Below are positions 1,691 to 14,975 of a stretch of 39,297 nucleotides of DNA, piece after piece (the stretch's first letter is position 1; the number at the start of each line of letters is the position of its first letter). This DNA is from an uncultured Clostridium sp. GTDB lineage: Bacteria; Bacillota; Clostridia; Christensenellales; CAG-138. The stretch is taken from positions 1 through 39,297 of the forward strand of contig CAYPXV010000003.1 in the NCBI GenBank assembly GCA_964414925.1, read 5' to 3'. Both the position numbers and the translations under genes were made by a program. The notes below the pieces were generated by a model. That model was not told the origin of the DNA. It saw nothing but the letters and a program-made list of their open reading frames with translations, and made no database searches.

Positions 1691-3037
1691 ATGGCATTTG
1701 AAGGACTTTCGTCAAAGCTTCAAAGTATTTTTAAAAAACTTGGCAATCGCGGAAAGCTTACCGAAAAAGAAGTTAAAGAGGTAATGAGGGAAGTCAAGCT
1801 TGCCTTGTTGGAAGCGGATGTCAATTTTTCGGTTGTAAAATCCTTCATAAATAATGTTTCTCAAAGAGCCGTAGGTGCGGAGGTGCTCGAGAGCCTTACC
1901 CCGTCTCAACAGATAATAAAAATCGTTAATGCGGAATTGATAGAACTCATGGGCGGTTCGGTCGAGAAAATTAATTTCGGACCAAGAAAGCCTTCGGTTA
2001 TACTTCTTGCGGGCTTGCAGGGAGCGGGTAAAACCACCATGGCAGGAAAACTTGCTGCGTTTTTAGCCAAAACACAAGGCAAGAAACCGCTGCTTGTAGC
2101 ATGTGATATCTATCGCCCGGCTGCGATTAAACAGCTTCAGATAGTAGGCGAGAGGGCAGGAGTGCCGGTGTTCGAAAAGGGAACCCAAAATCCCGTTCAA
2201 ACAGCCAAAGAAGCAATTGCTTACGCCGAGTATCATTTTTTGGATTTGGTAATTATCGATACCGCAGGACGACTTCATATTGATGAAAATATGATGGAGG
2301 AAATTACCGCCATAAAGGAGCAAGTCAACCCTTCCGAAATTCTTTTGGTTGTTGACTCAATGACGGGTCAGGATGCCGTAAACGTTGCTAAGAGCTTTAA
2401 CGAAAAACTTGAACTGACAGGTGTTATCCTAACCAAGCTTGATGGTGATACAAGAGGCGGTGCAGCACTCAGCGTTCGTTCGGTAACGGGAAAACCGATA
2501 AAGATCTCGGGCACAGGCGAAAAACTCACCGATGTAGAACTGTTCCATCCGGATAGAATGGCGTCGAGAATCCTCGGTATGGGTGATGTCTTAACGCTTA
2601 TCGAAAAGGCAGAGCAGGCATACGATGAGAAACAAGCCGAGGAGCTGGCAAGAAAGCTTACAGGTGACGAATTTACCCTTGAAGATTTCTTGGAACAACT
2701 TCAACAGGTAAAAAAGATGGGTTCATTTGACGAACTGCTTGCAATGATGCCGGGAATGAATACGGCTCAAATGAAGAACGTCGAGATTGACCCTAAAGCA
2801 AGCGCAAGCGTTGAGGCCATTATTCGTTCCATGACCCCGAAGGAACGACGTAAACCCGAAATTCTCAATGCAAGTAGGAAAAAACGAATCGCTGCCGGTA
2901 GCGGTACGAGCGTTCAACAGGTTAACAGATTGCTAAAGCAGTTTGAACAAACACGTCAGCTTATGAAACAGTTTACGGGTAAAGGAAAAAAACGTTTCGG
3001 GAAAAAGGGCTTTGGCGGCCTGTTCGGCATGAGATGA
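1691..3037 (+). CDS. ffh: Signal recognition particle protein Ffh
   Basis: SRP54-type GTPase motifs GLQGAGKTT, DTAGR and TKLDGD, plus a Met-rich M domain and a basic C-terminal tail. GGAGGG RBS. Confidence 0.97.
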   Translation: MAFEGLSSKLQSIFKKLGNRGKLTEKEVKEVMREVKLALLEADVNFSVVKSFINNVSQRAVGAEVLESLTPSQQIIKIVNAELIELMGGSVEKINFGPRKPSVILLAGLQGAGKTTMAGKLAAFLAKTQGKKPLLVACDIYRPAAIKQLQIVGERAGVPVFEKGTQNPVQTAKEAIAYAEYHFLDLVIIDTAGRLHIDENMMEEITAIKEQVNPSEILLVVDSMTGQDAVNVAKSFNEKLELTGVILTKLDGDTRGGAALSVRSVTGKPIKISGTGEKLTDVELFHPDRMASRILGMGDVLTLIEKAEQAYDEKQAEELARKLTGDEFTLEDFLEQLQQVKKMGSFDELLAMMPGMNTAQMKNVEIDPKASASVEAIIRSMTPKERRKPEILNASRKKRIAAGSGTSVQQVNRLLKQFEQTRQLMKQFTGKGKKRFGKKGFGGLFGMR

Positions 3038-3115
3038 TGCAAAGCCACAGGATAAACCAATACAGCCTTACTTGAGGCTTTTGGATATAGTTTAATTTAC
3101 CAGGAGGAATTATTT

Positions 3116-3358
3116 ATGCTTAAAATCAGACTTCGCAGAATGGGTGCAAAGAAGGCTCCTTTCTACAGAATCGTTGTTGCTGACTCACGCGCACCCCGTG
3201 ACGGTGCTTTTGTTGAGGAAATCGGATATTACAATCCCCTGACAGAACCGGAACAGGTTGTCGTTGACAGCGAGAAAGCAAGACAGTGGATAAAGAACGG
3301 TGCTCAGCCCACCGAGACTGTACGTGGTCTTTTCAAAAAGAACGGCGTTATTGAGTAA
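3116..3358 (+). CDS. rpsP: 30S ribosomal protein S16
   Basis: [25 protein letters not shown] is a canonical S16 N-terminus. AGGAGG RBS. Confidence 0.97.
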
Positions 3359-7416: not shown

Positions 7417-7445
7417 TTGACACGAATTTTGTATTGTGCTATACT
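7417..7445 (+). promoter_or_regulatory. Promoter of the riboswitch-controlled locus (TTGACA-17-TGcTATACT)
   Basis: Consensus -35 and an extended -10, read directly. The predicted TSS of about 7452 is the 5' end of the riboswitch. Confidence 0.6.
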
Positions 7446-7451
7446 TGCGCT

Positions 7452-7680
7452 GTAACGAAGGAACGGTTGCCGTGCGATTTTTCGTAGGCTTAAAAGGGAA
7501 TGCGGTTAAAGGCCGCAGCAGTCCCCGCTACTGTATCCGGTGACGAAATTGCTATAACCACTTCGCTTTATGCGTGGGAAGGTGCATTGAGTAGATTGAC
7601 CCGGGAGCCAGGAGACCTGCCGTACTTTCGCAATGGTGGTTCTCGGGAGATAGGCGACCTAAGGTGTGCATAGTGATACG
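7452..7680 (+). promoter_or_regulatory. Cobalamin (B12) riboswitch aptamer
   Basis: The conserved core AAAAGGGAAtGCGGTtAAaGgCCGCaGCaGtCCCCGCtACTGT lies at 7492-7534. The B12 box AGCCAGGAGACCTGCC lies at 7606-7621. Both match the Rfam RF00174 consensus from memory. Confidence 0.9.
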
Positions 7681-7709
7681 AGAACTGCATTTTATGCAGT
7701 TCTTTTTGT
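7681..7709 (+). terminator. Riboswitch expression-platform terminator
   Basis: AGAACTGCA (7681-7689) pairs with TGCAGTTCT (7695-7703), followed by TTTTTGTT. Confidence 0.8.
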
Positions 7710-7783: not shown

Positions 7784-8806
7784 ATGAAAAACTGCAAAAA
7801 ATTGATTGCGATTATTATGGTCGCAGCACTTATGTTGTCCTGTGTCGCTGCTATGGCGCAGGTTGTACCGACGTATCCCGAAGTTCCCGACGGATATGAC
7901 GGATTCGTAACCATTTCGGTTTCGGCAGCCACCATAGGCTGGGGATACTTGGTTACACCGATGCTCGTTCCCGTACATAACGGAGAAAGCGTTGCACAAG
8001 CAACGGTTCGTCTGTTCGACACACTTAGTATCGGCTATATAGCGGGTTCCATGGAGAATTTCTATCTCAGCAATATTTCATGCCAGAATTGCGTGGACGG
8101 AGTTGCTCCCAATGTCCCGAGTTACTTAATGGAACAGCTTGAGCTGTACCCCGGTTGGGCAGAAGAAAATTACGGATACTCATATGGCGAATGGACAGGA
8201 ACCGAAAATGGAAACGGTATGTTGGGTGAAGGTGACTTCAGTGATTTCGCAGGCTGGATGATAGCGGAAAATAATGTTTCACTTCCCGTTGGTGCAGGTT
8301 CTTATTCCGTACAGGTAGGTTGTTCTTATCAGTGGGGATTTACCGTTTACGGATGGGGAATGGATCTCGGTTGGAGCAACGGTTGGGGTTCTTTCCCGAT
8401 ATTCGATAACCCCGCAGAAGGCGTTAACCGCTCCGAAGCTGAAAAAGCAGTTGCCATGATTTTATCGGATGAAACATTATCACCCAAAGTTGAAGAAGGT
8501 GGTGCGGCATATACCGAGTTCGCAAGCTTGAAATCCGCTCTTGAGATCATTTCTTCAAGTCAGGAACAGATAGACGACTGCCTTGCTCAATTATTGAATG
8601 CACTTGAAGACAACGCCTTGTTGCTCGGCGATGTTAACGGTGACGGTGCCGTTAATATGCAGGATGCACAATTGGTTTTGAGACATTCGATGGGCTTAAT
8701 GCAACTTTCTGACGAAGCACTTGCCGTCGCCGACGTTAACGCAGACGGAAACATCAACTCCGCAGATGCAACTCTTATTGTCAGAATTGCACTTGGTCTT
8801 GTTTGA
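7784..8806 (+). CDS. Secreted DUF4430-like protein with a C-terminal type I dockerin
   Basis: GGAGG RBS and a signal peptide MKNCKKLIAIIMVAALMLSCVAAMA/Q. The central region aligns by eye with the DUF4430 lipoprotein at 10207 (NGESVAQATVRLF vs EGESVYDVLVREC; AGWMIAENNVSLPVGAGSYSV...WGFTVYGWGMDLG vs SGWTYCVNSVFPNYGCSNYFL...FHYTCDLGRDVG). The C-terminus has two dockerin Ca-binding repeats, DVNGDGAVNMQDAQLVLR and DVNADGNINSADATLIVR. Confidence 0.8.
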   Translation: MKNCKKLIAIIMVAALMLSCVAAMAQVVPTYPEVPDGYDGFVTISVSAATIGWGYLVTPMLVPVHNGESVAQATVRLFDTLSIGYIAGSMENFYLSNISCQNCVDGVAPNVPSYLMEQLELYPGWAEENYGYSYGEWTGTENGNGMLGEGDFSDFAGWMIAENNVSLPVGAGSYSVQVGCSYQWGFTVYGWGMDLGWSNGWGSFPIFDNPAEGVNRSEAEKAVAMILSDETLSPKVEEGGAAYTEFASLKSALEIISSSQEQIDDCLAQLLNALEDNALLLGDVNGDGAVNMQDAQLVLRHSMGLMQLSDEALAVADVNADGNINSADATLIVRIALGLV

Positions 8807-8818
8807 TAAAAGTTTGTT

Positions 8819-8856
8819 CCTATGCGGTGAATTGCTTTCACTGCATAGGTTTTATT
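8819..8856 (+). terminator. Strong intrinsic terminator/attenuator hairpin inside the riboswitch-controlled locus
   Basis: A 13-bp stem (8819-8831 pairs with 8837-8849, one G-U) with loop TTGCT, followed by TTTTATTGTTT. Confidence 0.75.
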
Positions 8857-8863
8857 GTTTACT

Positions 8864-10210
8864 ATGCTGAAAAAGTTTTCTAAGATTATAATAGCTTTCG
8901 TCCTGCTTCTGTCATTCTTGCTTTGCGTAACGGTCAGTTTTGCCGATAAAGCGGAATACACTTCCGAGCTTGACGCAACTCTTACCAGACTTAAAGGTTC
9001 AAAACCGCAGTTCGGTTCGATAGGCGGTGAATGGAAGGTCTTTGCGCTTGCAAGGAGCGGTCGCATTGATAAAGATTCAAAGTTTGTTTCCGATTATCTT
9101 TCTTCAATAGAAGATATGCTCAGGAATAATGGAGATCCTAAACTTGACCCGAGAAAGCCGAGTGAGAATTCAAGACTCATAATTGCTTTGTCAAGCCTGG
9201 GTTATGATGCAACCGATGTCGCCGGTTTTGACTTGACTCAGCCACTTAAAGAAATCGACTTTGTCCGTAAGCAGGGTATAACAGGTGTTATATATGCGCT
9301 CATTGCTCTCGATTGTAAAAGCGAATATGCGACAACCTCGTATAAAAAACAACTCGTTGATTTTATTGTAAATGCGGAAATTAACGGTGGTGGATGGGCG
9401 ATGGGCGGCAATGTGCCCGATCCCGATATTACCGCTGCGGCAATATACGCTATTGCCGACTATTCATCTGCTAAATCTGCGGTTAATCGAGGTGTAAATA
9501 TCCTTTCGGAAATCCAATGCGATAACGGTGCTTTCCAAAGCTATGGCAATATCAATTCCGAAAGTTGCTCACAGGTTCTTGTAGCTTTGAGTACGGTCGG
9601 AATAGATGCATCGTCGGATTCGAGATTTATTAAAAACGGTTGTTCATTACTTGATGCACTGCTCTCATTCTTTACCGGTGACGGCTTTGCACATCTGTAT
9701 GGCGGTTCGGTTAACCAGATGGCAAGCGAGCAAGCAGCGTATGCGTTATGTGCTTACAACAGAATGGTAAAACATAAAACCAATCTGTACGACATGTCCG
9801 ATGTCTGGAGCGCATCTTCACCAACTCCGACTAAGACGCCGAAACCGACCGCAACACTTAAACCGACAGCGACTCCGATAGTGACTTCGACTCCGACAGC
9901 GCCCCCCGCCTCAACTCCTGTTGAGACAACAAGACTTGACAGTAATACCGAGAAGCCTTCGCTTACACCGTCGGTTGATTCTACATCAACACCCGAAGCT
10001 ACATTCGAATTTGTGACGGAAACGATCACAACTGATGAAGAAACGCCGTCACCGACAGCGCAAACCGATACGGTTGAGCCGACTGTTATTACAACGGAAG
10101 AACCTGTCGGCGGAAAGGAAGCAAATGCAAAATGGCTCTTGCCGCTGTGTTTGATTGCTGCCGTTTTGGTAGGTATTACGGTGTTTGTTTCGATTAGGAG
10201 GAAATCTTGA
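8864..10210 (+). CDS. Cell-surface alpha/alpha-toroid (prenyltransferase/terpene-cyclase-like repeat) protein with a Pro/Thr linker and a C-terminal TM anchor
   Basis: Signal peptide MLKKFSKIIIAFVLLLSFLLCVTVSFA. Repeats such as NGGGWAMGGNVPDPDITAAAIYAI and QCDNGAFQSYGNINSESCSQVLVAL are typical of squalene-cyclase/prenyltransferase-type toroids. The PT/ST-rich linker lies at about nt 9815-10110. The terminal WLLPLCLIAAVLVGITVFVSIRRKS is a TM helix with a basic tail and no LPXTG. I prefer the ATG at 8864 to the ORF-track TTG at 8855, but no obvious SD precedes it. Confidence 0.75.
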   Translation: MLKKFSKIIIAFVLLLSFLLCVTVSFADKAEYTSELDATLTRLKGSKPQFGSIGGEWKVFALARSGRIDKDSKFVSDYLSSIEDMLRNNGDPKLDPRKPSENSRLIIALSSLGYDATDVAGFDLTQPLKEIDFVRKQGITGVIYALIALDCKSEYATTSYKKQLVDFIVNAEINGGGWAMGGNVPDPDITAAAIYAIADYSSAKSAVNRGVNILSEIQCDNGAFQSYGNINSESCSQVLVALSTVGIDASSDSRFIKNGCSLLDALLSFFTGDGFAHLYGGSVNQMASEQAAYALCAYNRMVKHKTNLYDMSDVWSASSPTPTKTPKPTATLKPTATPIVTSTPTAPPASTPVETTRLDSNTEKPSLTPSVDSTSTPEATFEFVTETITTDEETPSPTAQTDTVEPTVITTEEPVGGKEANAKWLLPLCLIAAVLVGITVFVSIRRKS

Positions 10211-10695
10211 AAAGAATTTCTTGCTTGATATTAACAATCTTTTTCTTGTTTGCATGCTTAACCGCTTGTGATGTAGGAAAAGAAGAAAACGGTCTTACCT
10301 GCACTCTATATATCGAATGTAAGACAGCACTGAACTATGAGGAACTGGACCCCGAAATTAGGGAAATAATCCCGGATGACGGAATTATTATTCAACAAAG
10401 CACCGTTGCTTTTGATGAAGGAGAGTCCGTTTATGATGTTCTCGTCAGAGAATGTAAAGAAAGAGGAATACACATGGAGGCATCATATACCCCGGTGTAT
10501 AACAGTGCTTATATAGAAGGCATCAATAACCTCTATGAGTTTGATTGCGGAAGCTTAAGCGGATGGACGTATTGTGTTAATTCCGTCTTTCCGAATTACG
10601 GATGCAGTAATTACTTTCTTTCTGACGGAGACTGCATAGAATTTCACTACACTTGCGACTTAGGTCGTGATGTCGGTTGTGTTTTTGAGGAGTAA
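10207..10695 (+). CDS. DUF4430-domain lipoprotein (putative corrinoid-binding)
   Basis: TTG start 5 nt after AGGAGG, overlapping the upstream TGA. The lipobox is L-T-A-C (Cys21). The body matches DUF4430, including GWTYCVNSVFPNYGCSNYFLSDGDCIEFHYT. Confidence 0.8.
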   Translation: MKRISCLILTIFFLFACLTACDVGKEENGLTCTLYIECKTALNYEELDPEIREIIPDDGIIIQQSTVAFDEGESVYDVLVRECKERGIHMEASYTPVYNSAYIEGINNLYEFDCGSLSGWTYCVNSVFPNYGCSNYFLSDGDCIEFHYTCDLGRDVGCVFEE

Positions 10696-10703
10696 AAGTA
10701 AGT

Positions 10704-11585
10704 ATGAGACGAGATGCATTTGATGATGTACATCCCTTTATTGCGTTTGCTTTTTTCGCTTACGCAATTTTAGTGACGACTCTTTTTATGCATCCCGTCT
10801 TTATTATCGCTTCATTCCTTATCGGGATTAGCTGGTCTTTTATCCTTGTCGGTAGAAAAACATTGAACTTACTGGTTAAGTTTATTCTGCCGGTTACAAT
10901 TATTATTGCGATTATTAATCCTTTGTTTAATCATAAGGGTTTGACTATTCTTTTTTATCTTAAAGATAATCCGATAACACTTGAATCCATTATCTATGCC
11001 CTCGTAGCATCTGCAATGTTTGCATCCGTCATTATTTGGTTTTCATGCTTTAATGAAATAATCAAAAGTGAAAAGATAATCTACATATTCGGTAAAACCT
11101 TGCCGTCGATTTCCTTGCTGATTATGCTTGTACTCAGATTCGTACCGCTTTATAAACGCCAAGCTCAAAAGATAGCTTTATCTATGCGTGCAAGAGGGTG
11201 CGATACGGAAGGCGGCAACGTCATCAAGCGTGCCAAAACAGGTTTGAACATACTTCTGGCTCTTATAACCTGGGGGCTTGAAAGCTCTGTAACTACAGCC
11301 GACTCCATGAGGTCAAGAGGTCATGGATTGCATGGCAGAACTTTTTATTCCGATTATCGTTTGGATAAGAGAGATATCGTAATTGTGATTTGTATGCTGT
11401 TAGGTGGGATAACCGCAGTATACGGCATTGCAACAGGCTCCGTGTTCGTTAAGTTCTATCCGCTGTTTAAAATGAATGAATGGGACTTCACAACACTCCT
11501 TTATTCTGCAATACATGCGCTTGTTCTTTTTATTCCGATTATTTTAAATGTTATTGAGGCTACAAGATGGAAATACTCAAAATAA
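10704..11585 (+). CDS. ecfT: ECF transporter transmembrane (T) component, EcfT/CbiQ family
   Basis: Polytopic membrane protein with the two coupling-helix Arg motifs MRARG and MRSRG, in the spacing typical of EcfT/CbiQ. Confidence 0.85.
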   Translation: MRRDAFDDVHPFIAFAFFAYAILVTTLFMHPVFIIASFLIGISWSFILVGRKTLNLLVKFILPVTIIIAIINPLFNHKGLTILFYLKDNPITLESIIYALVASAMFASVIIWFSCFNEIIKSEKIIYIFGKTLPSISLLIMLVLRFVPLYKRQAQKIALSMRARGCDTEGGNVIKRAKTGLNILLALITWGLESSVTTADSMRSRGHGLHGRTFYSDYRLDKRDIVIVICMLLGGITAVYGIATGSVFVKFYPLFKMNEWDFTTLLYSAIHALVLFIPIILNVIEATRWKYSK

Positions 11586-13216
11586 ACGATTTAAGTTTTT
11601 CATATTCAACCGAAAAAAACGGCAGACAGGCTCTTTCACATATAAACCTTTCCATAGACGAAGGTCAGTTCGTGCTTGTATGCGGCTCGTCGGGATGCGG
11701 TAAATCGACTTTACTTAAACAGATTAAGCCTTCGTTAAGACCCTATGGTAAGCTTGACGGTTCGATATTGCTTGACGAAAAAAACGTGGATGAATTGTCC
11801 TTCCGCCAACAATCGGAATTAATCGGCTTTGTGATGCAGGATCCCGAGATGCAGATAGTTACGGATAAGGTCTTTCATGAACTTGCCTTCGGTTTGGAAA
11901 ATTTGGGAGTAGATAATACTCAAATGCATATTCGCATTGCGGAAACGGTTAATTATTTCGGGATTCAGAACATAATTAACAATGATACTTCGGAATTATC
12001 AGGTGGGCAAAAACAAATCGTCTGCCTGGCGGGTATTATGGCAATGCAGCCTAAAATTCTGCTGTTGGATGAACCCACTTCTCAGCTTGACCCGATTGCG
12101 GCAAGTGAATTTATTTCCGCATTAAAGCGAATTAACGAGGAATTGGGGACTACAATTATCATTACAGAACATAGATATGAGAGCCTGTTTCCTGTGGCAG
12201 ACAGAGTGGTTTTTATGGAAAACGGACAAATAATCTCCGACAGTAAACCGCAAAATTCGGTAATGAAGCTTATTAATAAGCCCGAATACATAGAGATATT
12301 GCCGACAACATTAAGATTGTATGCAGCAACATCCGATTTAACGGGCGATGCTCCGTTAACGGTGCGTGATGGAAGAAATTATTTGCGTACTTTCGCCAAA
12401 ACCGAGGCTAAATCATGTGCATTAAAAATAAAAAACCCGGATAAACAAACCCCGATTCTTTCGGCAAAAGATGTTTATTTCAAATATGATGCCTCAGGAA
12501 AAGACGTACTGAGAAGTTTTAATTTCGATGTTTTTCAGGGAGAACTTATGTGCATTATAGGTGCAAACGGTTCGGGGAAAACAACCGCAATAATGACAGC
12601 GTCCGGTTTATACACTCCGTACAGAGGTAAGGTCAGTTTCAAAGGTAAGAATATGCGTACCTACAAGAAAACGGAACTTTACGGAAAACAGATTGCTCTG
12701 CTGGTTCAAAATCCGATTTGTACCTTTGTTCATGATACGGTGATTGAGGAACTTGAAGATGTGTGTAAGAATTTCTCGATACCAAAACAAAGACTGAATG
12801 AAGTTATAGAACTGATGGAGCTTGAGAATATTCTTGACAAGCATCCTTATGACGTTAGCGGAGGAGAAATTCAGCGTGCGGCTATAGCGGCTTTGCTTTT
12901 GCCGAGTCCGGAAGTTATCTTCTTGGATGAAGCAACAAAGGGAATGGATGGTTTTTTTAAGAAGAAATTCGGTGCTTTTTTAAAGAAAATAACTGCCGCC
13001 GGTACTGCCGTCGTTTTGGTTTCCCATGATATAGAGTTTTGTGCGGAATATGCGGATAGGTGCGCAATGTTTTTTGACGGAACAATTACCGCACAGGGAC
13101 TACCTGAACAAACTTTACTGAATAACAGCTTCTATACGACAACCGCAAATAGGTTATCTCGAGAAGTTATTTCTGCGGTTTTGACTACCGAGGAATTAAT
13201 CGATAGTGTGAAGTGA
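11567..13216 (+). CDS. Fused tandem ECF/ABC ATPase (EcfA-EcfA')
   Basis: Two nucleotide-binding domains. NBD1 has GSSGCGKST, LSGGQKQ and LLLDEPTS. NBD2 has GANGSGKTT, VSGGEIQ and IFLDEATK. It overlaps the ecfT end by 19 nt. Confidence 0.9.
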   Translation: MEILKINDLSFSYSTEKNGRQALSHINLSIDEGQFVLVCGSSGCGKSTLLKQIKPSLRPYGKLDGSILLDEKNVDELSFRQQSELIGFVMQDPEMQIVTDKVFHELAFGLENLGVDNTQMHIRIAETVNYFGIQNIINNDTSELSGGQKQIVCLAGIMAMQPKILLLDEPTSQLDPIAASEFISALKRINEELGTTIIITEHRYESLFPVADRVVFMENGQIISDSKPQNSVMKLINKPEYIEILPTTLRLYAATSDLTGDAPLTVRDGRNYLRTFAKTEAKSCALKIKNPDKQTPILSAKDVYFKYDASGKDVLRSFNFDVFQGELMCIIGANGSGKTTAIMTASGLYTPYRGKVSFKGKNMRTYKKTELYGKQIALLVQNPICTFVHDTVIEELEDVCKNFSIPKQRLNEVIELMELENILDKHPYDVSGGEIQRAAIAALLLPSPEVIFLDEATKGMDGFFKKKFGAFLKKITAAGTAVVLVSHDIEFCAEYADRCAMFFDGTITAQGLPEQTLLNNSFYTTTANRLSREVISAVLTTEELIDSVK

Positions 13217-13959
13217 GCATTATGAACGGCAATAAATTTTTTAAGCTGATACAAAATAATAAAAACAGATTGATATCGACGTTGCTATTTGTCATAATTG
13301 TTCCGTGCTTAATAGCACTCGGAATAGTTGTTTGGGATGATAGGCATTACTATATAGTCTCCGCAATTATTATAATAGCTGCGCTCGTTCCGTTTACTCT
13401 GCTTTTTGAAAAAAGAAAACCTAAAACACGAGAATTGGTTCTTATTGCCGTCATGACAACTCTGGGCGTAGTAGGTAGGGTTGCTTTTTATATGTTGCCC
13501 CAGTTTAAACCTGTCACTGCAATAGTCATTATTACGGGTGCTGCATTTGGAGGCGAGGCAGGTTTTGTGACAGGTGCATTGACTGCTTTCATTTCCAATA
13601 TGTTTTTCGGTCAAGGTCCGTGGACTCCCTGGCAAATGTTTGCATTCGGAATAATCGGATTTTTATCAGGATTGATTTTTTATAAGAAATCGGAAAAGAT
13701 AAATATCATGCAGTTGGTAGTGTTCGGAGCATTGGCAACGTTGATTATTTACGGAGCGATTATGGACACTTCATCCCTTTTTTCGATGAGCGATGAGGTG
13801 TCTTTTAAGGCATTATTGAGCCTTTTTGCTTCGGGTTTTATAATGAATGTAATTCATGCTCTTTCAACCGTAGTCTTTTTATTGCTTTTATCTAAGCCGC
13901 TACTGAAAAAGCTTCAAAGGATAAAAATTAAATACGGAATATTGAGCCCAAACGATTAA
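13213..13959 (+). CDS. ECF transporter substrate-capture (S) component, candidate corrinoid-specific (CbrT-like role)
   Basis: A small membrane protein of 6-7 TM helices, with an S-component-like core (GRVAFYMLPQFKPVTAIVIITGAAFG...GPWTPWQMFAFG). It is translationally coupled to the ATPase (GTG 13213 overlaps the TGA; alternative ATG at 13222). Substrate specificity is inferred only from the riboswitch context. Confidence 0.65.
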   Translation: MSIMNGNKFFKLIQNNKNRLISTLLFVIIVPCLIALGIVVWDDRHYYIVSAIIIIAALVPFTLLFEKRKPKTRELVLIAVMTTLGVVGRVAFYMLPQFKPVTAIVIITGAAFGGEAGFVTGALTAFISNMFFGQGPWTPWQMFAFGIIGFLSGLIFYKKSEKINIMQLVVFGALATLIIYGAIMDTSSLFSMSDEVSFKALLSLFASGFIMNVIHALSTVVFLLLLSKPLLKKLQRIKIKYGILSPND

Positions 13960-13967
13960 ATTAAAGC

Positions 13968-13996
13968 TTGAAGAATTGTGTAACATGGGATATAAT
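13968..13996 (+). promoter_or_regulatory. Candidate promoter of the GT2 gene (TTGAAG-17-TATAAT)
   Basis: Hexamers read directly, about 50 nt upstream of the AGGAGG-ATG at 14046. Confidence 0.55.
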
Positions 13997-14045
13997 GAAT
14001 ACGGTGAAAACCGTTGATTTCATTATTTTGTTGTTAGGAGGAAAG

Positions 14046-14975
14046 ATGGAAAAGTTGCTTTCGCTGATTGTCCCCGTTTATAACGAGGAAGAAGTTCTTG
14101 AAGTTTCGTTCCAAAAGATGGATGCGGAAATGAAAAAAATAGGCTATCCATACGAAATTATCTATGTAAATGATGGAAGTCATGACGGCTCGATGAAAAT
14201 CCTTCGCAAAATCGCCAAGGATAATAAGCATGTAAAGGTTCGTTCTTTCAGTAGAAATTTCGGACACCAGACAGCTGTAACCTGCGGAATGGATGCCGCA
14301 AAGGGTGATGCTCTGATTATCATTGACGTTGATTTGCAAGATCCGCCGGAAGTCATTGCCGATATGGTTAAAGCATGGGAAAATGGTGCCGATATCGCTT
14401 ACGGTAAACGCTTAAAGCGAAAAGGGGAGACCTTGTTCAAAAAATTTACCGCCTTTTGCTATTACCGTCTGCTTAAAGCTATGAGTACAAACGCAATTCC
14501 GCTCGATACAGGCGACTTCCGTTTGATCGACAGAAAGGTTGCGGATGTATTTTTGAAAATGCGTGAGCATAACAGATTCCTTCGCGGAATGAGCGGTTGG
14601 ATGGGCTTTGAAGCTGTTCCCGTTGAATATGTAAGAAATGAACGTTATGCAGGTAAAACGAAATACACATTAAAGAAAATGCTTCGCCTTGCCATGGACG
14701 GAATTATCGGATTCAGCGACAGACCGTTGACCCTTTGTGCAGGATTCGGCGCATCCGTACTTGCCATAGGCGGTTTGGGATTGCTTACTTTGATAGTTCT
14801 TGCTTGTTGTGCCGTTAATTTTCCCGTATGGCTCTGGGCTTTGGACGGTATAATAATTTTACAGGCTATGCTGTTCATCTTTTTGGGAATACAAGGCTCA
14901 TATATGAATCGTATGTATGATGAATTGAAGAACCGTCCGCTCTATATCGTTGCGGAAGAACTTAACGTCGATTGA
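14046..14975 (+). CDS. Family 2 glycosyltransferase, polyprenyl-phosphate sugar transferase type (GtrB/DPM1-like)
   Basis: Starts MEKLLSLIVPVYNEEE. It has the DGSHDGS and DVDLQD (DXD) motifs and two C-terminal TM helices. AGGAGG RBS. The ORF-track start at 13968 lies in the promoter. Confidence 0.85.
   Translation: MEKLLSLIVPVYNEEEVLEVSFQKMDAEMKKIGYPYEIIYVNDGSHDGSMKILRKIAKDNKHVKVRSFSRNFGHQTAVTCGMDAAKGDALIIIDVDLQDPPEVIADMVKAWENGADIAYGKRLKRKGETLFKKFTAFCYYRLLKAMSTNAIPLDTGDFRLIDRKVADVFLKMREHNRFLRGMSGWMGFEAVPVEYVRNERYAGKTKYTLKKMLRLAMDGIIGFSDRPLTLCAGFGASVLAIGGLGLLTLIVLACCAVNFPVWLWALDGIIILQAMLFIFLGIQGSYMNRMYDELKNRPLYIVAEELNVD

Follow-up and report, generated by a model that had tools for sequence, protein, structure and literature searches.

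Burroughs, Balaji, Iyer and Aravind defined the SLBB superfamily in 2007 (PMC1796856). The passages of their paper that deal with bacterial transcobalamin-like SLBB proteins place these, often with a second SLBB paralogue, in operons with CbiO and CbiQ, predict a role in vitamin B12 scavenging and propose that animals gained transcobalamin from such bacteria. Here we analyze a locus resembling these systems in a 39,297-nucleotide stretch of DNA from an uncultured Clostridium sp. (GenBank assembly GCA_964414925.1, contig CAYPXV010000003.1; the window, meaning this whole stretch), in which a gene for an α6/α6 toroid protein (gene B) is followed directly by a gene for a DUF4430 lipoprotein (gene C). 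The window fits the 2007 description closely, with secreted SLBB proteins, an α/α toroid and CbiQ/CbiO-type genes. It differs in that the passages concerned speak of fusions and operons and do not mention a riboswitch, whereas the window has a riboswitch and a CbrT-like S component, and in that the toroid and both SLBB domains of the window lie on three polypeptides, one of them with a dockerin.

A split arrangement has been described in Lactobacillus sakei, where Lsa1839 (β-like) and Lsa1840 (α-like) lie beside the energy-coupling factor (ECF) proteins Lsa1836-1838 and, with haptocorrin and transcobalamin as templates, were modelled as a heterodimer (bioRxiv 10.1101/864751, 2019). There, as in the window, split secreted α-like and β-like proteins stand next to genes for the S, A-A' and T components; unlike the window, which has a cobalamin riboswitch and an extra dockerin-SLBB protein, the L. 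sakei system was assigned to haem and a riboswitch goes unmentioned. The transporter part has a characterized relative in ECF-CbrT of Lactobacillus delbrueckii (6FNP), a vitamin B12 transporter that carries out ATP-driven import of cobalamin and cobinamide (PMC5997447). The window operon likewise has a homologous S component, EcfT and two EcfA ATPase domains, but it encodes its own, dedicated ECF module with a fused ATPase pair, and the genes of three extracellular accessory proteins stand ahead of that module.

The animal carriers transcobalamin, intrinsic factor and haptocorrin likewise combine an α6/α6 toroid with a β-grasp (SLBB/DUF4430) domain, are extracellular and feed an uptake system. 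They are single chains running from α to β, whereas the halves in the window are separate genes and the fused bacterial relatives mostly have the reverse order, SLBB then toroid; the window proteins are moreover cell-anchored (by lipid, membrane helix or dockerin) and would feed an ECF transporter rather than receptor-mediated endocytosis. In Bacteroides, BtuG, BtuH and BtuJ (a DUF4465 protein) form a surface lipoprotein relay for cobamides (PMC13616437). The likeness to the window is one of analogy, in that surface proteins capture cobamides and pass them to a transporter. The Bacteroides transporter is the TonB-dependent BtuB of a diderm, and we take the fold of BtuJ to be unrelated to those of the window surface proteins. 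Equivalent cobamide capture in Gram-positive Firmicutes was called "entirely uncharacterized" in a 2026 review (PMC13616437), and our literature search turned up no report of these bacterial toroid/SLBB proteins binding B12.

The layout thus has a prediction from 2007 behind it and a split counterpart described in L. sakei, and the idea itself is not new; because the architecture had been described computationally, the finding is modest as a discovery. What this locus adds is a dockerin-bearing SLBB domain as a separate protein, together with clear riboswitch evidence that favors corrinoids over haem.

A predicted B12-regulated corrinoid uptake operon

We assign genes B and C, with a probability of roughly 0.78, to the middle of a seven-gene operon for B12-regulated capture and import of corrinoids (the vitamin B12 family) in an uncultured spore-forming Clostridia bacterium from gut or rumen. 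The corrinoid-capture role is well supported because a riboswitch, a CbrT-like S component, the β-domain fold of gene C and synteny all point to it. The operon genes are tightly packed or overlapping, and its features, all on the forward (+) strand, are as follows.

7417 to 7445, +, promoter-like site: TTGACA, 17-nt spacer, TATACT and a TG extension; 11/12 matches, a consensus match only
7447 to 7638, +, cobalamin riboswitch aptamer RF00174: score 120.8 bits, gathering threshold 31.5; E=5.7e-30; model matched over its full length
7680 to 7704, +, terminator-like hairpin: 11-bp stem then TTTTGTTG; 42 nt past the aptamer
7784 to 8806, +, gene A: secreted; divergent SLBB/DUF4430 domain with an insert, a helical region and a C-terminal type I dockerin
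8819 to 8849, +, hairpin and T-run between genes A and B: 13-bp stem then TTTTATTGTT; dG -19.9 kcal/mol
8864 to 10210, +, gene B: signal peptide (residues 1-27), α6/α6 toroid (~30-312), Pro/Thr-rich stalk (~313-420), C-terminal membrane helix and RRKS (~424-448)
10207 to 10695, +, gene C: DUF4430/SLBB lipoprotein with lipobox LTAC and Cys21
10704 to 11585, +, EcfT (CbiQ-type) transmembrane component: PF02361 E=1.6e-07; position kept in relatives
11567 to 13216, +, fused EcfA-EcfA' double ATPase: two ABC_tran domains; TIGR04520 E=2.7e-102, TIGR04521 E=3.1e-96
13213 to 13959, +, ECF S component, CbrT-like, with a ~65-residue N-terminal extension: PF07155 E=1.2e-14, PF12822 E=2.2e-10

An earlier note on this DNA had proposed that genes B and C encode, as translationally coupled neighbors, the two halves of a bacterial B12 carrier, and its gene-level description held up. 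Both are real same-strand open reading frames (ORFs) at 8864-10210 and 10207-10695. The TTG of gene C (10207-10209) and the TGA of gene B (10208-10210) can be read directly in the DNA as a shared 4-nt TTGA, and a perfect AGGAGG at 10196-10201 lies 5 nt upstream of that TTG, which gives good grounds for the TTG start and for translational coupling. Gene B starts at ATG 8864, with a further in-frame TTG at 8855. Its translation opens with a signal peptide, continues through a ~290-residue domain and an extended region rich in Pro and Thr, and closes with a hydrophobic C-terminal helix ending in RRKS. The GGW and QxxxG(A/G)F motifs that the note had seen in this protein (G176-G177-W178 and Q218-x3-G222-A-F224) are invariant or nearly so in an alignment of 93 toroid homologues, the conservation set used for gene B throughout. 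The assignment of gene C as a DUF4430 lipoprotein is borne out by an above-cut-off match to PF14478 (E=7.7e-15) and by the LTAC lipobox, whose Cys21 is nearly invariant in the 82 homologues that served as the corresponding set.

For comparison with related loci, a one-genome-per-species scan gave 584 confirmed toroid relatives, of which the best 80 loci were kept. Their ORFs, taken stop to stop, were searched with profiles of the three surface proteins and the window ECF proteins; adjacency was counted where 1.5 kb or more of sequence extends past the toroid ORF (63 loci), ECF genes where 3 kb or more does (59 loci), and Rfam riboswitch scans covered 34 of the 80. Nearly all of these loci come from Clostridia (Ruminococcus, Oscillospiraceae, Lachnospiraceae, Terrisporobacter and others), with one from Paenibacillus.

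The link to B12 proved much stronger than could be seen in the earlier note. The RF00174 aptamer heads the operon, with the promoter-like site immediately ahead of it, and the hairpin at 7680-7704 is likely its expression platform. In 20 of the 34 scanned loci the cluster has a cobalamin riboswitch upstream on its own strand, and two more loci adjoin a divergent one; a cobalamin riboswitch is also found upstream in L004/L005, from a Christensenellaceae metagenome-assembled genome (MAG), and an AdoCbl-II riboswitch in L001. As riboswitches recur upstream of the scanned loci, the toroid-SLBB-ECF module is a regular member of the B12 regulon.

One leader carries a different RNA. In a Blautia sp. 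MAG (L080), a Clostridiales-1 RNA (RF01699, 96.3 bits) at positions 3035-3193 lies in the leader of a DUF4430-toroid-ECF operon, with a divergent cobalamin riboswitch just upstream on the opposite strand. This RNA class has no assigned function, and in L080 it occupies the place that the riboswitch takes in other loci. We considered it as a riboswitch substitute in one sub-architecture and rejected this, since it occurs only in L080 and is absent from four loci of similar architecture.

From gene C to the S component, neighboring genes are 8 nt apart or overlap. Searched against the PDB, the S component has one significant match, 6fnp_A (182 aa; E=7.1e-11), which is the CbrT structure, and from the riboswitch and this homology we infer that it would transport cobalamin or cobinamide. 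Synteny extends to the relatives: EcfT and EcfA are present in 44 of 59 loci, a separate DUF4430 gene lies directly beside the toroid gene in 51 of 63 (45 downstream and 8 upstream, 2 of these having one on both sides), and with fusions counted as well, 58 of 63 have a DUF4430 domain next to or within the toroid protein. L004/L005 keep the same order as the window (dockerin-SLBB, toroid, DUF4430, EcfT, EcfAA', S), and L001 has two toroid paralogues with DUF4430 and ECF genes.

Transporter organization varies among the relatives. EcfA-A' and S share one ORF of ~890 residues in L016, L017, L022, L024, L028, L034, L038, L039, L045, L048, L049, L085 and others, which suggests an A-A'-S triple fusion in the Ruminococcus-type loci that have it. 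A second EcfT follows the S component in L018, L023, L047, L080, L082, L050 and L053.

AlphaFold2 models were made of the gene B toroid domain and of gene C, each as a single protein, and compared with the PDB by Foldseek. The gene C model, with a predicted local distance difference test score (pLDDT) of 90.1, bears out the earlier description of this protein as β-domain-like: its best 17 matches are all β domains of transcobalamin, intrinsic factor and haptocorrin (E 5.5e-6 to 1.1e-4), followed by the bacterial DUF4430 structure 3u7z and then by ubiquitin-like folds at E>0.02. Against the isolated human transcobalamin β domain (5no0) the TM-score by target (TMt) is 0.70. At the level of the predicted structure, gene C, which belongs to a family with 3188 homologues, is confirmed as a transcobalamin-type β domain.

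Besides the lipobox Cys21, cysteines C32, C38, C114, C133 and C150 of gene C are invariant or nearly so in its homologues; they could be paired as disulfides or serve as a site for a ligand or metal. The PDB deposition title of its DUF4430 relative 3u7z is "putative metal binding protein".

These two observations, together with matches of EcfT to Pfam CbiQ and of the ATPase to cbiO-type models, would suit an ECF module that is a CbiMNQO-type cobalt importer, likewise B12-riboswitch regulated, with surface proteins that bind metal. CbiQ and CbiO, however, are simply the T and A families common to ECF transporters in general, none of the operon proteins has a listed match to CbiM or CbiN, and ECF-ribofla_trS, ECF_trnsprt and CbrT are what the S component matches. 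We find cobalt import scarcely credible.

The toroid and the evidence weighing against the proposed reading

Several observations speak against reading the operon as a transcobalamin-like corrinoid capture system. At the Rfam gathering score, 14 of the 34 scanned loci have no riboswitch, and in the window some of the transcripts under riboswitch control could stop at the 8819-8849 hairpin, short of gene B. The L. sakei authors argue that their homologous operon, lsa1836-1840, serves the uptake of haem, not B12, and present haem docking (10.1101/864751). When a narrow DUF4430 profile (A2) was run against the PDB, no B12 carrier was found by sequence, so that the link of gene C to transcobalamin needed the structure model. 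For gene B, Pfam PF01122 (Cobalamin_bind) is matched by 0/93 toroid homologues, gene B included (E<=1); a toroid profile search of the PDB gave terpene cyclases only, with no transcobalamin or other B12 carrier; the Foldseek list of its model is headed by a diterpene cyclase (6vpt, E=7e-5) and squalene-hopene cyclase (1sqc, 8e-4); and its TM-scores are equal for transcobalamin and cyclases.

The L. sakei proposal, which starts from the same split proteins beside an ECF transporter, would make the window operon an importer of haem or another tetrapyrrole. Cobalamin riboswitches nevertheless head the window operon and most of its relatives, and the SLBB fold matches B12 carriers specifically. 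The S component, moreover, matches CbrT, and hemin did not compete with CbrT-mediated B12 uptake in proteoliposomes (PMC5997447). Taking both sides together, we consider haem import very unlikely.

As for the toroid, its family is large (1735 homologues matched) and its sequence signals are faint. The only Pfam matches of gene B are below threshold (SQHop_cyclase_C at 15.5-16.4 bits, with 16.4 on the 322-aa domain, against a cut-off of 26.1; Prenyltrans at 16.7 bits on that same domain against 26.5), and matches of the same weak kind recur among the 93 homologues, 83 with SQHop_cyclase_C and 47 with Prenyltrans. NCBIfam gave gene B only a partial sub-threshold match to the SCO2321 family (37.9 bits against 300) and gene C no match, and single-sequence PDB searches with genes B and C returned nothing meaningful. 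The toroid profile reached squalene-hopene cyclase (1gsz, E=7.6e-14) through the repeat motifs; because its matches were terpene cyclases only and ran through these repeats, sequence is unable to tie the toroid to transcobalamin.

The toroid model (pLDDT 93.8; predicted TM-score, pTM, 0.88) places transcobalamin at ranks 3 and 5 of the Foldseek list, with the bovine protein (2bb6_A) third at E=1.1e-3 and a TM-score by query (TMq) of 0.52. The human protein (2bb5_A) has TMq 0.57, prenyltransferase β subunits 0.55-0.57 and C3d ~0.5, and Foldseek does not discriminate among transcobalamin, cyclases, prenyltransferases, glycosidase-type barrels and C3d. The model is a generic α6/α6 barrel, and kinship with the transcobalamin α domain is supported at fold level only. 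Of the earlier suggestion that the toroid is a transcobalamin α half, the α/α toroid fold stands, but the comparison does not single out transcobalamin, as cyclases and prenyltransferases score equally or slightly better.

These scores raise the alternative that the toroid is an isoprenoid or glycan enzyme or binder, such as a relative of cyclases or prenyltransferases or a cell-wall-directed protein, that is merely co-located with a B12 transporter. Class II terpene cyclases and prenyltransferase β subunits do share with gene B the α/α toroid and GGW and QxxxGxF-type repeats, they supply its best profile and Foldseek matches, and two of the three aspartates of the cyclase DxDD motif are kept in the toroid family. 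The squalene-hopene cyclase motif D374-V-D376-D377, however, aligns with D-P-D-[I/V/M/A/L], the third aspartate being replaced by one of these five residues in 92/92 toroid sequences with a residue at that column. Gene B furthermore has one toroid domain of ~290 aa, whereas class II cyclases have two (β-γ), and, being secreted and anchored at the surface, it lies apart from isoprenoid diphosphates. Prenyltransferase β subunits have an Asp/Cys/His zinc site and form cytosolic heterodimers, whereas gene B has a signal peptide and membrane anchor; no invariant cysteine was found among the 93 toroid homologues, which makes a zinc site of this type unlikely. Mere co-location is at odds with a linkage of the toroid to DUF4430, ECF genes and B12 riboswitches that is near-universal.

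The earlier note had regarded a better fit to prenyltransferases or cyclases with intact catalytic residues as fatal to its proposal. Because the DxDD motif ends in I/V/M/A/L throughout and the protein is exported, the proposal survives on this point. Judged by its sequence, gene B is a binding module and neither a cyclase nor a prenyltransferase, and we see a very small chance that it serves isoprenoid or glycan chemistry beside an unconnected B12 transporter.

Residues invariant across the 93 toroid homologues are F275-x-H277, E233-S234, Q290, W57, R64 and R104. In transcobalamin, a histidine of the α domain provides the upper axial cobalt ligand, and by analogy H277 is a candidate for its counterpart in gene B.

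Partners of the toroid

The window encodes a second SLBB protein in addition to gene C, namely gene A, which the earlier note had passed over. The ORF of gene A opens at TTG 7745, but its probable start is ATG 7784, as homologues begin MK(L/N/I)CKK. Its C-terminus matches Dockerin_1 (E=2.6e-12), and dockerins were also matched in the PDB. No Pfam family matches the N-terminal domain, but the profile of that domain (A3, 23 homologues) aligns with the DUF4430 profile A2 at an hhalign probability of 98.6% (E=5.6e-16), with an insertion; on this basis gene A is a second, divergent SLBB protein. Its family is very small, 27 proteins, with a dockerin recorded in 24. No cohesin gene was found within the window, and gene A would be a vitamin-capture protein tethered by cohesin-dockerin pairing. 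A literature search pairing dockerin with "cobalamin riboswitch" returned no paper.

Fusions among the relatives bear on which SLBB domain the toroid uses. Of the 80 toroid ORFs, 35 carry their own DUF4430 domain (32 N-terminal, 1 C-terminal and 2 at both ends; P0085 and P0118 are examples). The fusion partner seen most clearly is the gene A type: in at least 13 genomes the toroid carries such a domain (profile positions ~3-280) joined directly to its N-terminal side, with i-Evalues that reach 1e-37; L058, L072 and L078 are examples. A domain of the gene C type, in turn, is fused C-terminal to the toroid in L068 (i-Evalue 7e-40). Sixteen loci have a toroid, a gene-C-type SLBB protein and ECF genes alone, and as no other SLBB protein is present there, the gene-C type is the only available partner. 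Downstream of a fused SLBB-toroid protein, 23 loci still keep a separate DUF4430 gene of the gene-C type as well as ECF genes, which suggests an independent role for the gene-C type. Pairings of A with B and of B with C are thus both plausible from the sequences, and the window looks like a fully split version of the system on three polypeptides.

That genes B and C themselves form the sandwich has, in our estimate, an even chance. The earlier proposal of a two-polypeptide B12-carrier analogue is accordingly upheld in part: the corrinoid role is strongly supported by context and the β half by structure, while the α half is matched at fold level only.

A different division of labor would leave the capture of corrinoids for ECF-CbrT unchanged but make the SLBB domain of gene A the partner of the toroid, with gene C as a membrane-proximal relay to the S component. 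It would account for the N-terminal fusions of gene-A-type domains and for the 23 loci with a separate gene-C-type gene, and gene C orthologues always lie directly before EcfT. It is opposed by the 16 loci in which the toroid has only a gene-C-type SLBB protein, by the single chain of L068 with its gene-C-type domain on the C-terminal side, by the translational coupling of genes B and C in the window, and by gene-C-type genes beside toroids in L003, L046 and L067, where SLBB-toroid fusions lie near a gene-C-type DUF4430 gene and ECF genes are absent. We regard this arrangement as possible but rather unlikely.

Two groups of loci depart from the usual surroundings. L003, the contig of P0118, has mobile-element-like neighbors (Toprim/DUF3991, DpnD-PcfM, a PemK toxin, AAA ATPases and an SNF2-type helicase). 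The close relatives L008 and L011 carry gene A, the toroid and the DUF4430 gene with no ECF genes in the next 5.4 kb, and their surface module may serve another transporter.

Proposed route of corrinoid capture

With genes B and C placed in a corrinoid uptake operon, its working can be pictured as follows. The cobalamin riboswitch would shut the operon off when B12 is plentiful. When on, the operon would yield three extracytoplasmic proteins, namely the dockerin-tethered divergent SLBB protein (A), the stalked toroid (B) and the SLBB lipoprotein (C), and a dedicated ECF importer composed of EcfT, the fused EcfA-A' and the CbrT-like S component. The Pro/Thr-rich stalk would keep the toroid away from the membrane. 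The toroid and an SLBB domain would act as the α and β halves of a transcobalamin-like binder that catches a corrinoid outside the cell, and the captured corrinoid would be handed to the S component for ATP-driven import. The riboswitch, the domain assignments, the β-domain fold, the gene order kept among relatives and the natural fusions are observed; what we infer is that B12 is bound, which SLBB domain joins the toroid, how the sandwich is built and that the corrinoid passes to CbrT.

A more elaborate and speculative picture, which we would sooner doubt than adopt, is a three-tier extracellular corrinoid relay in Gram-positive gut and rumen Clostridia. The dockerin-SLBB protein would sit outermost, in a cohesin scaffold, the stalked toroid would close over the corrinoid in the manner of transcobalamin, and the membrane-proximal SLBB lipoprotein would pass it to CbrT. 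Such a relay would be a counterpart of BtuG/H/J and a living relative of the bacterial ancestor of animal transcobalamin, and in it a vitamin scavenger would ride on cellulosome-type architecture.

Competition for B12-type cofactors shapes gut and rumen communities, and surface capture machinery is known for Bacteroides. The operon family is widespread, is tightly tied to B12 riboswitches and offers simple soluble proteins. If the toroid and SLBB proteins bind cobamides, the 2007 prediction would be confirmed, the haem-versus-B12 question from L. sakei would be settled, and the origin of the animal B12 carriers could be studied in a bacterial model.

Other features of the locus

The hairpin at 8819-8849 fills part of the 57-nt gap between genes A and B. 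It is not conserved, with an equivalent only in L007, and genes A and B overlap in L008 and L011. It may be a partial terminator or an mRNA-end stabilizer, and from its sequence context may modulate local stoichiometry between gene A and the downstream products rather than mark an operon boundary. That it makes gene A a separate unit was rejected as a general rule, given relatives in which the genes abut or overlap and the hairpin is missing.

A family 2 glycosyltransferase gene (13968-14975) follows the S component on the same strand after 8 nt. In relatives the glycosyltransferase lies outside the cluster, and L004 has an oppositely oriented permease at that place; a tie of this gene to the operon is doubtful. 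The remainder of the window holds the housekeeping genes plsX, ffh, rimM, trmD, rplS, gap, a gyrB/parE-type gene, trpS and pfk and a Spo0A-type regulator, a set that is ordinary for a spore-forming Firmicute.

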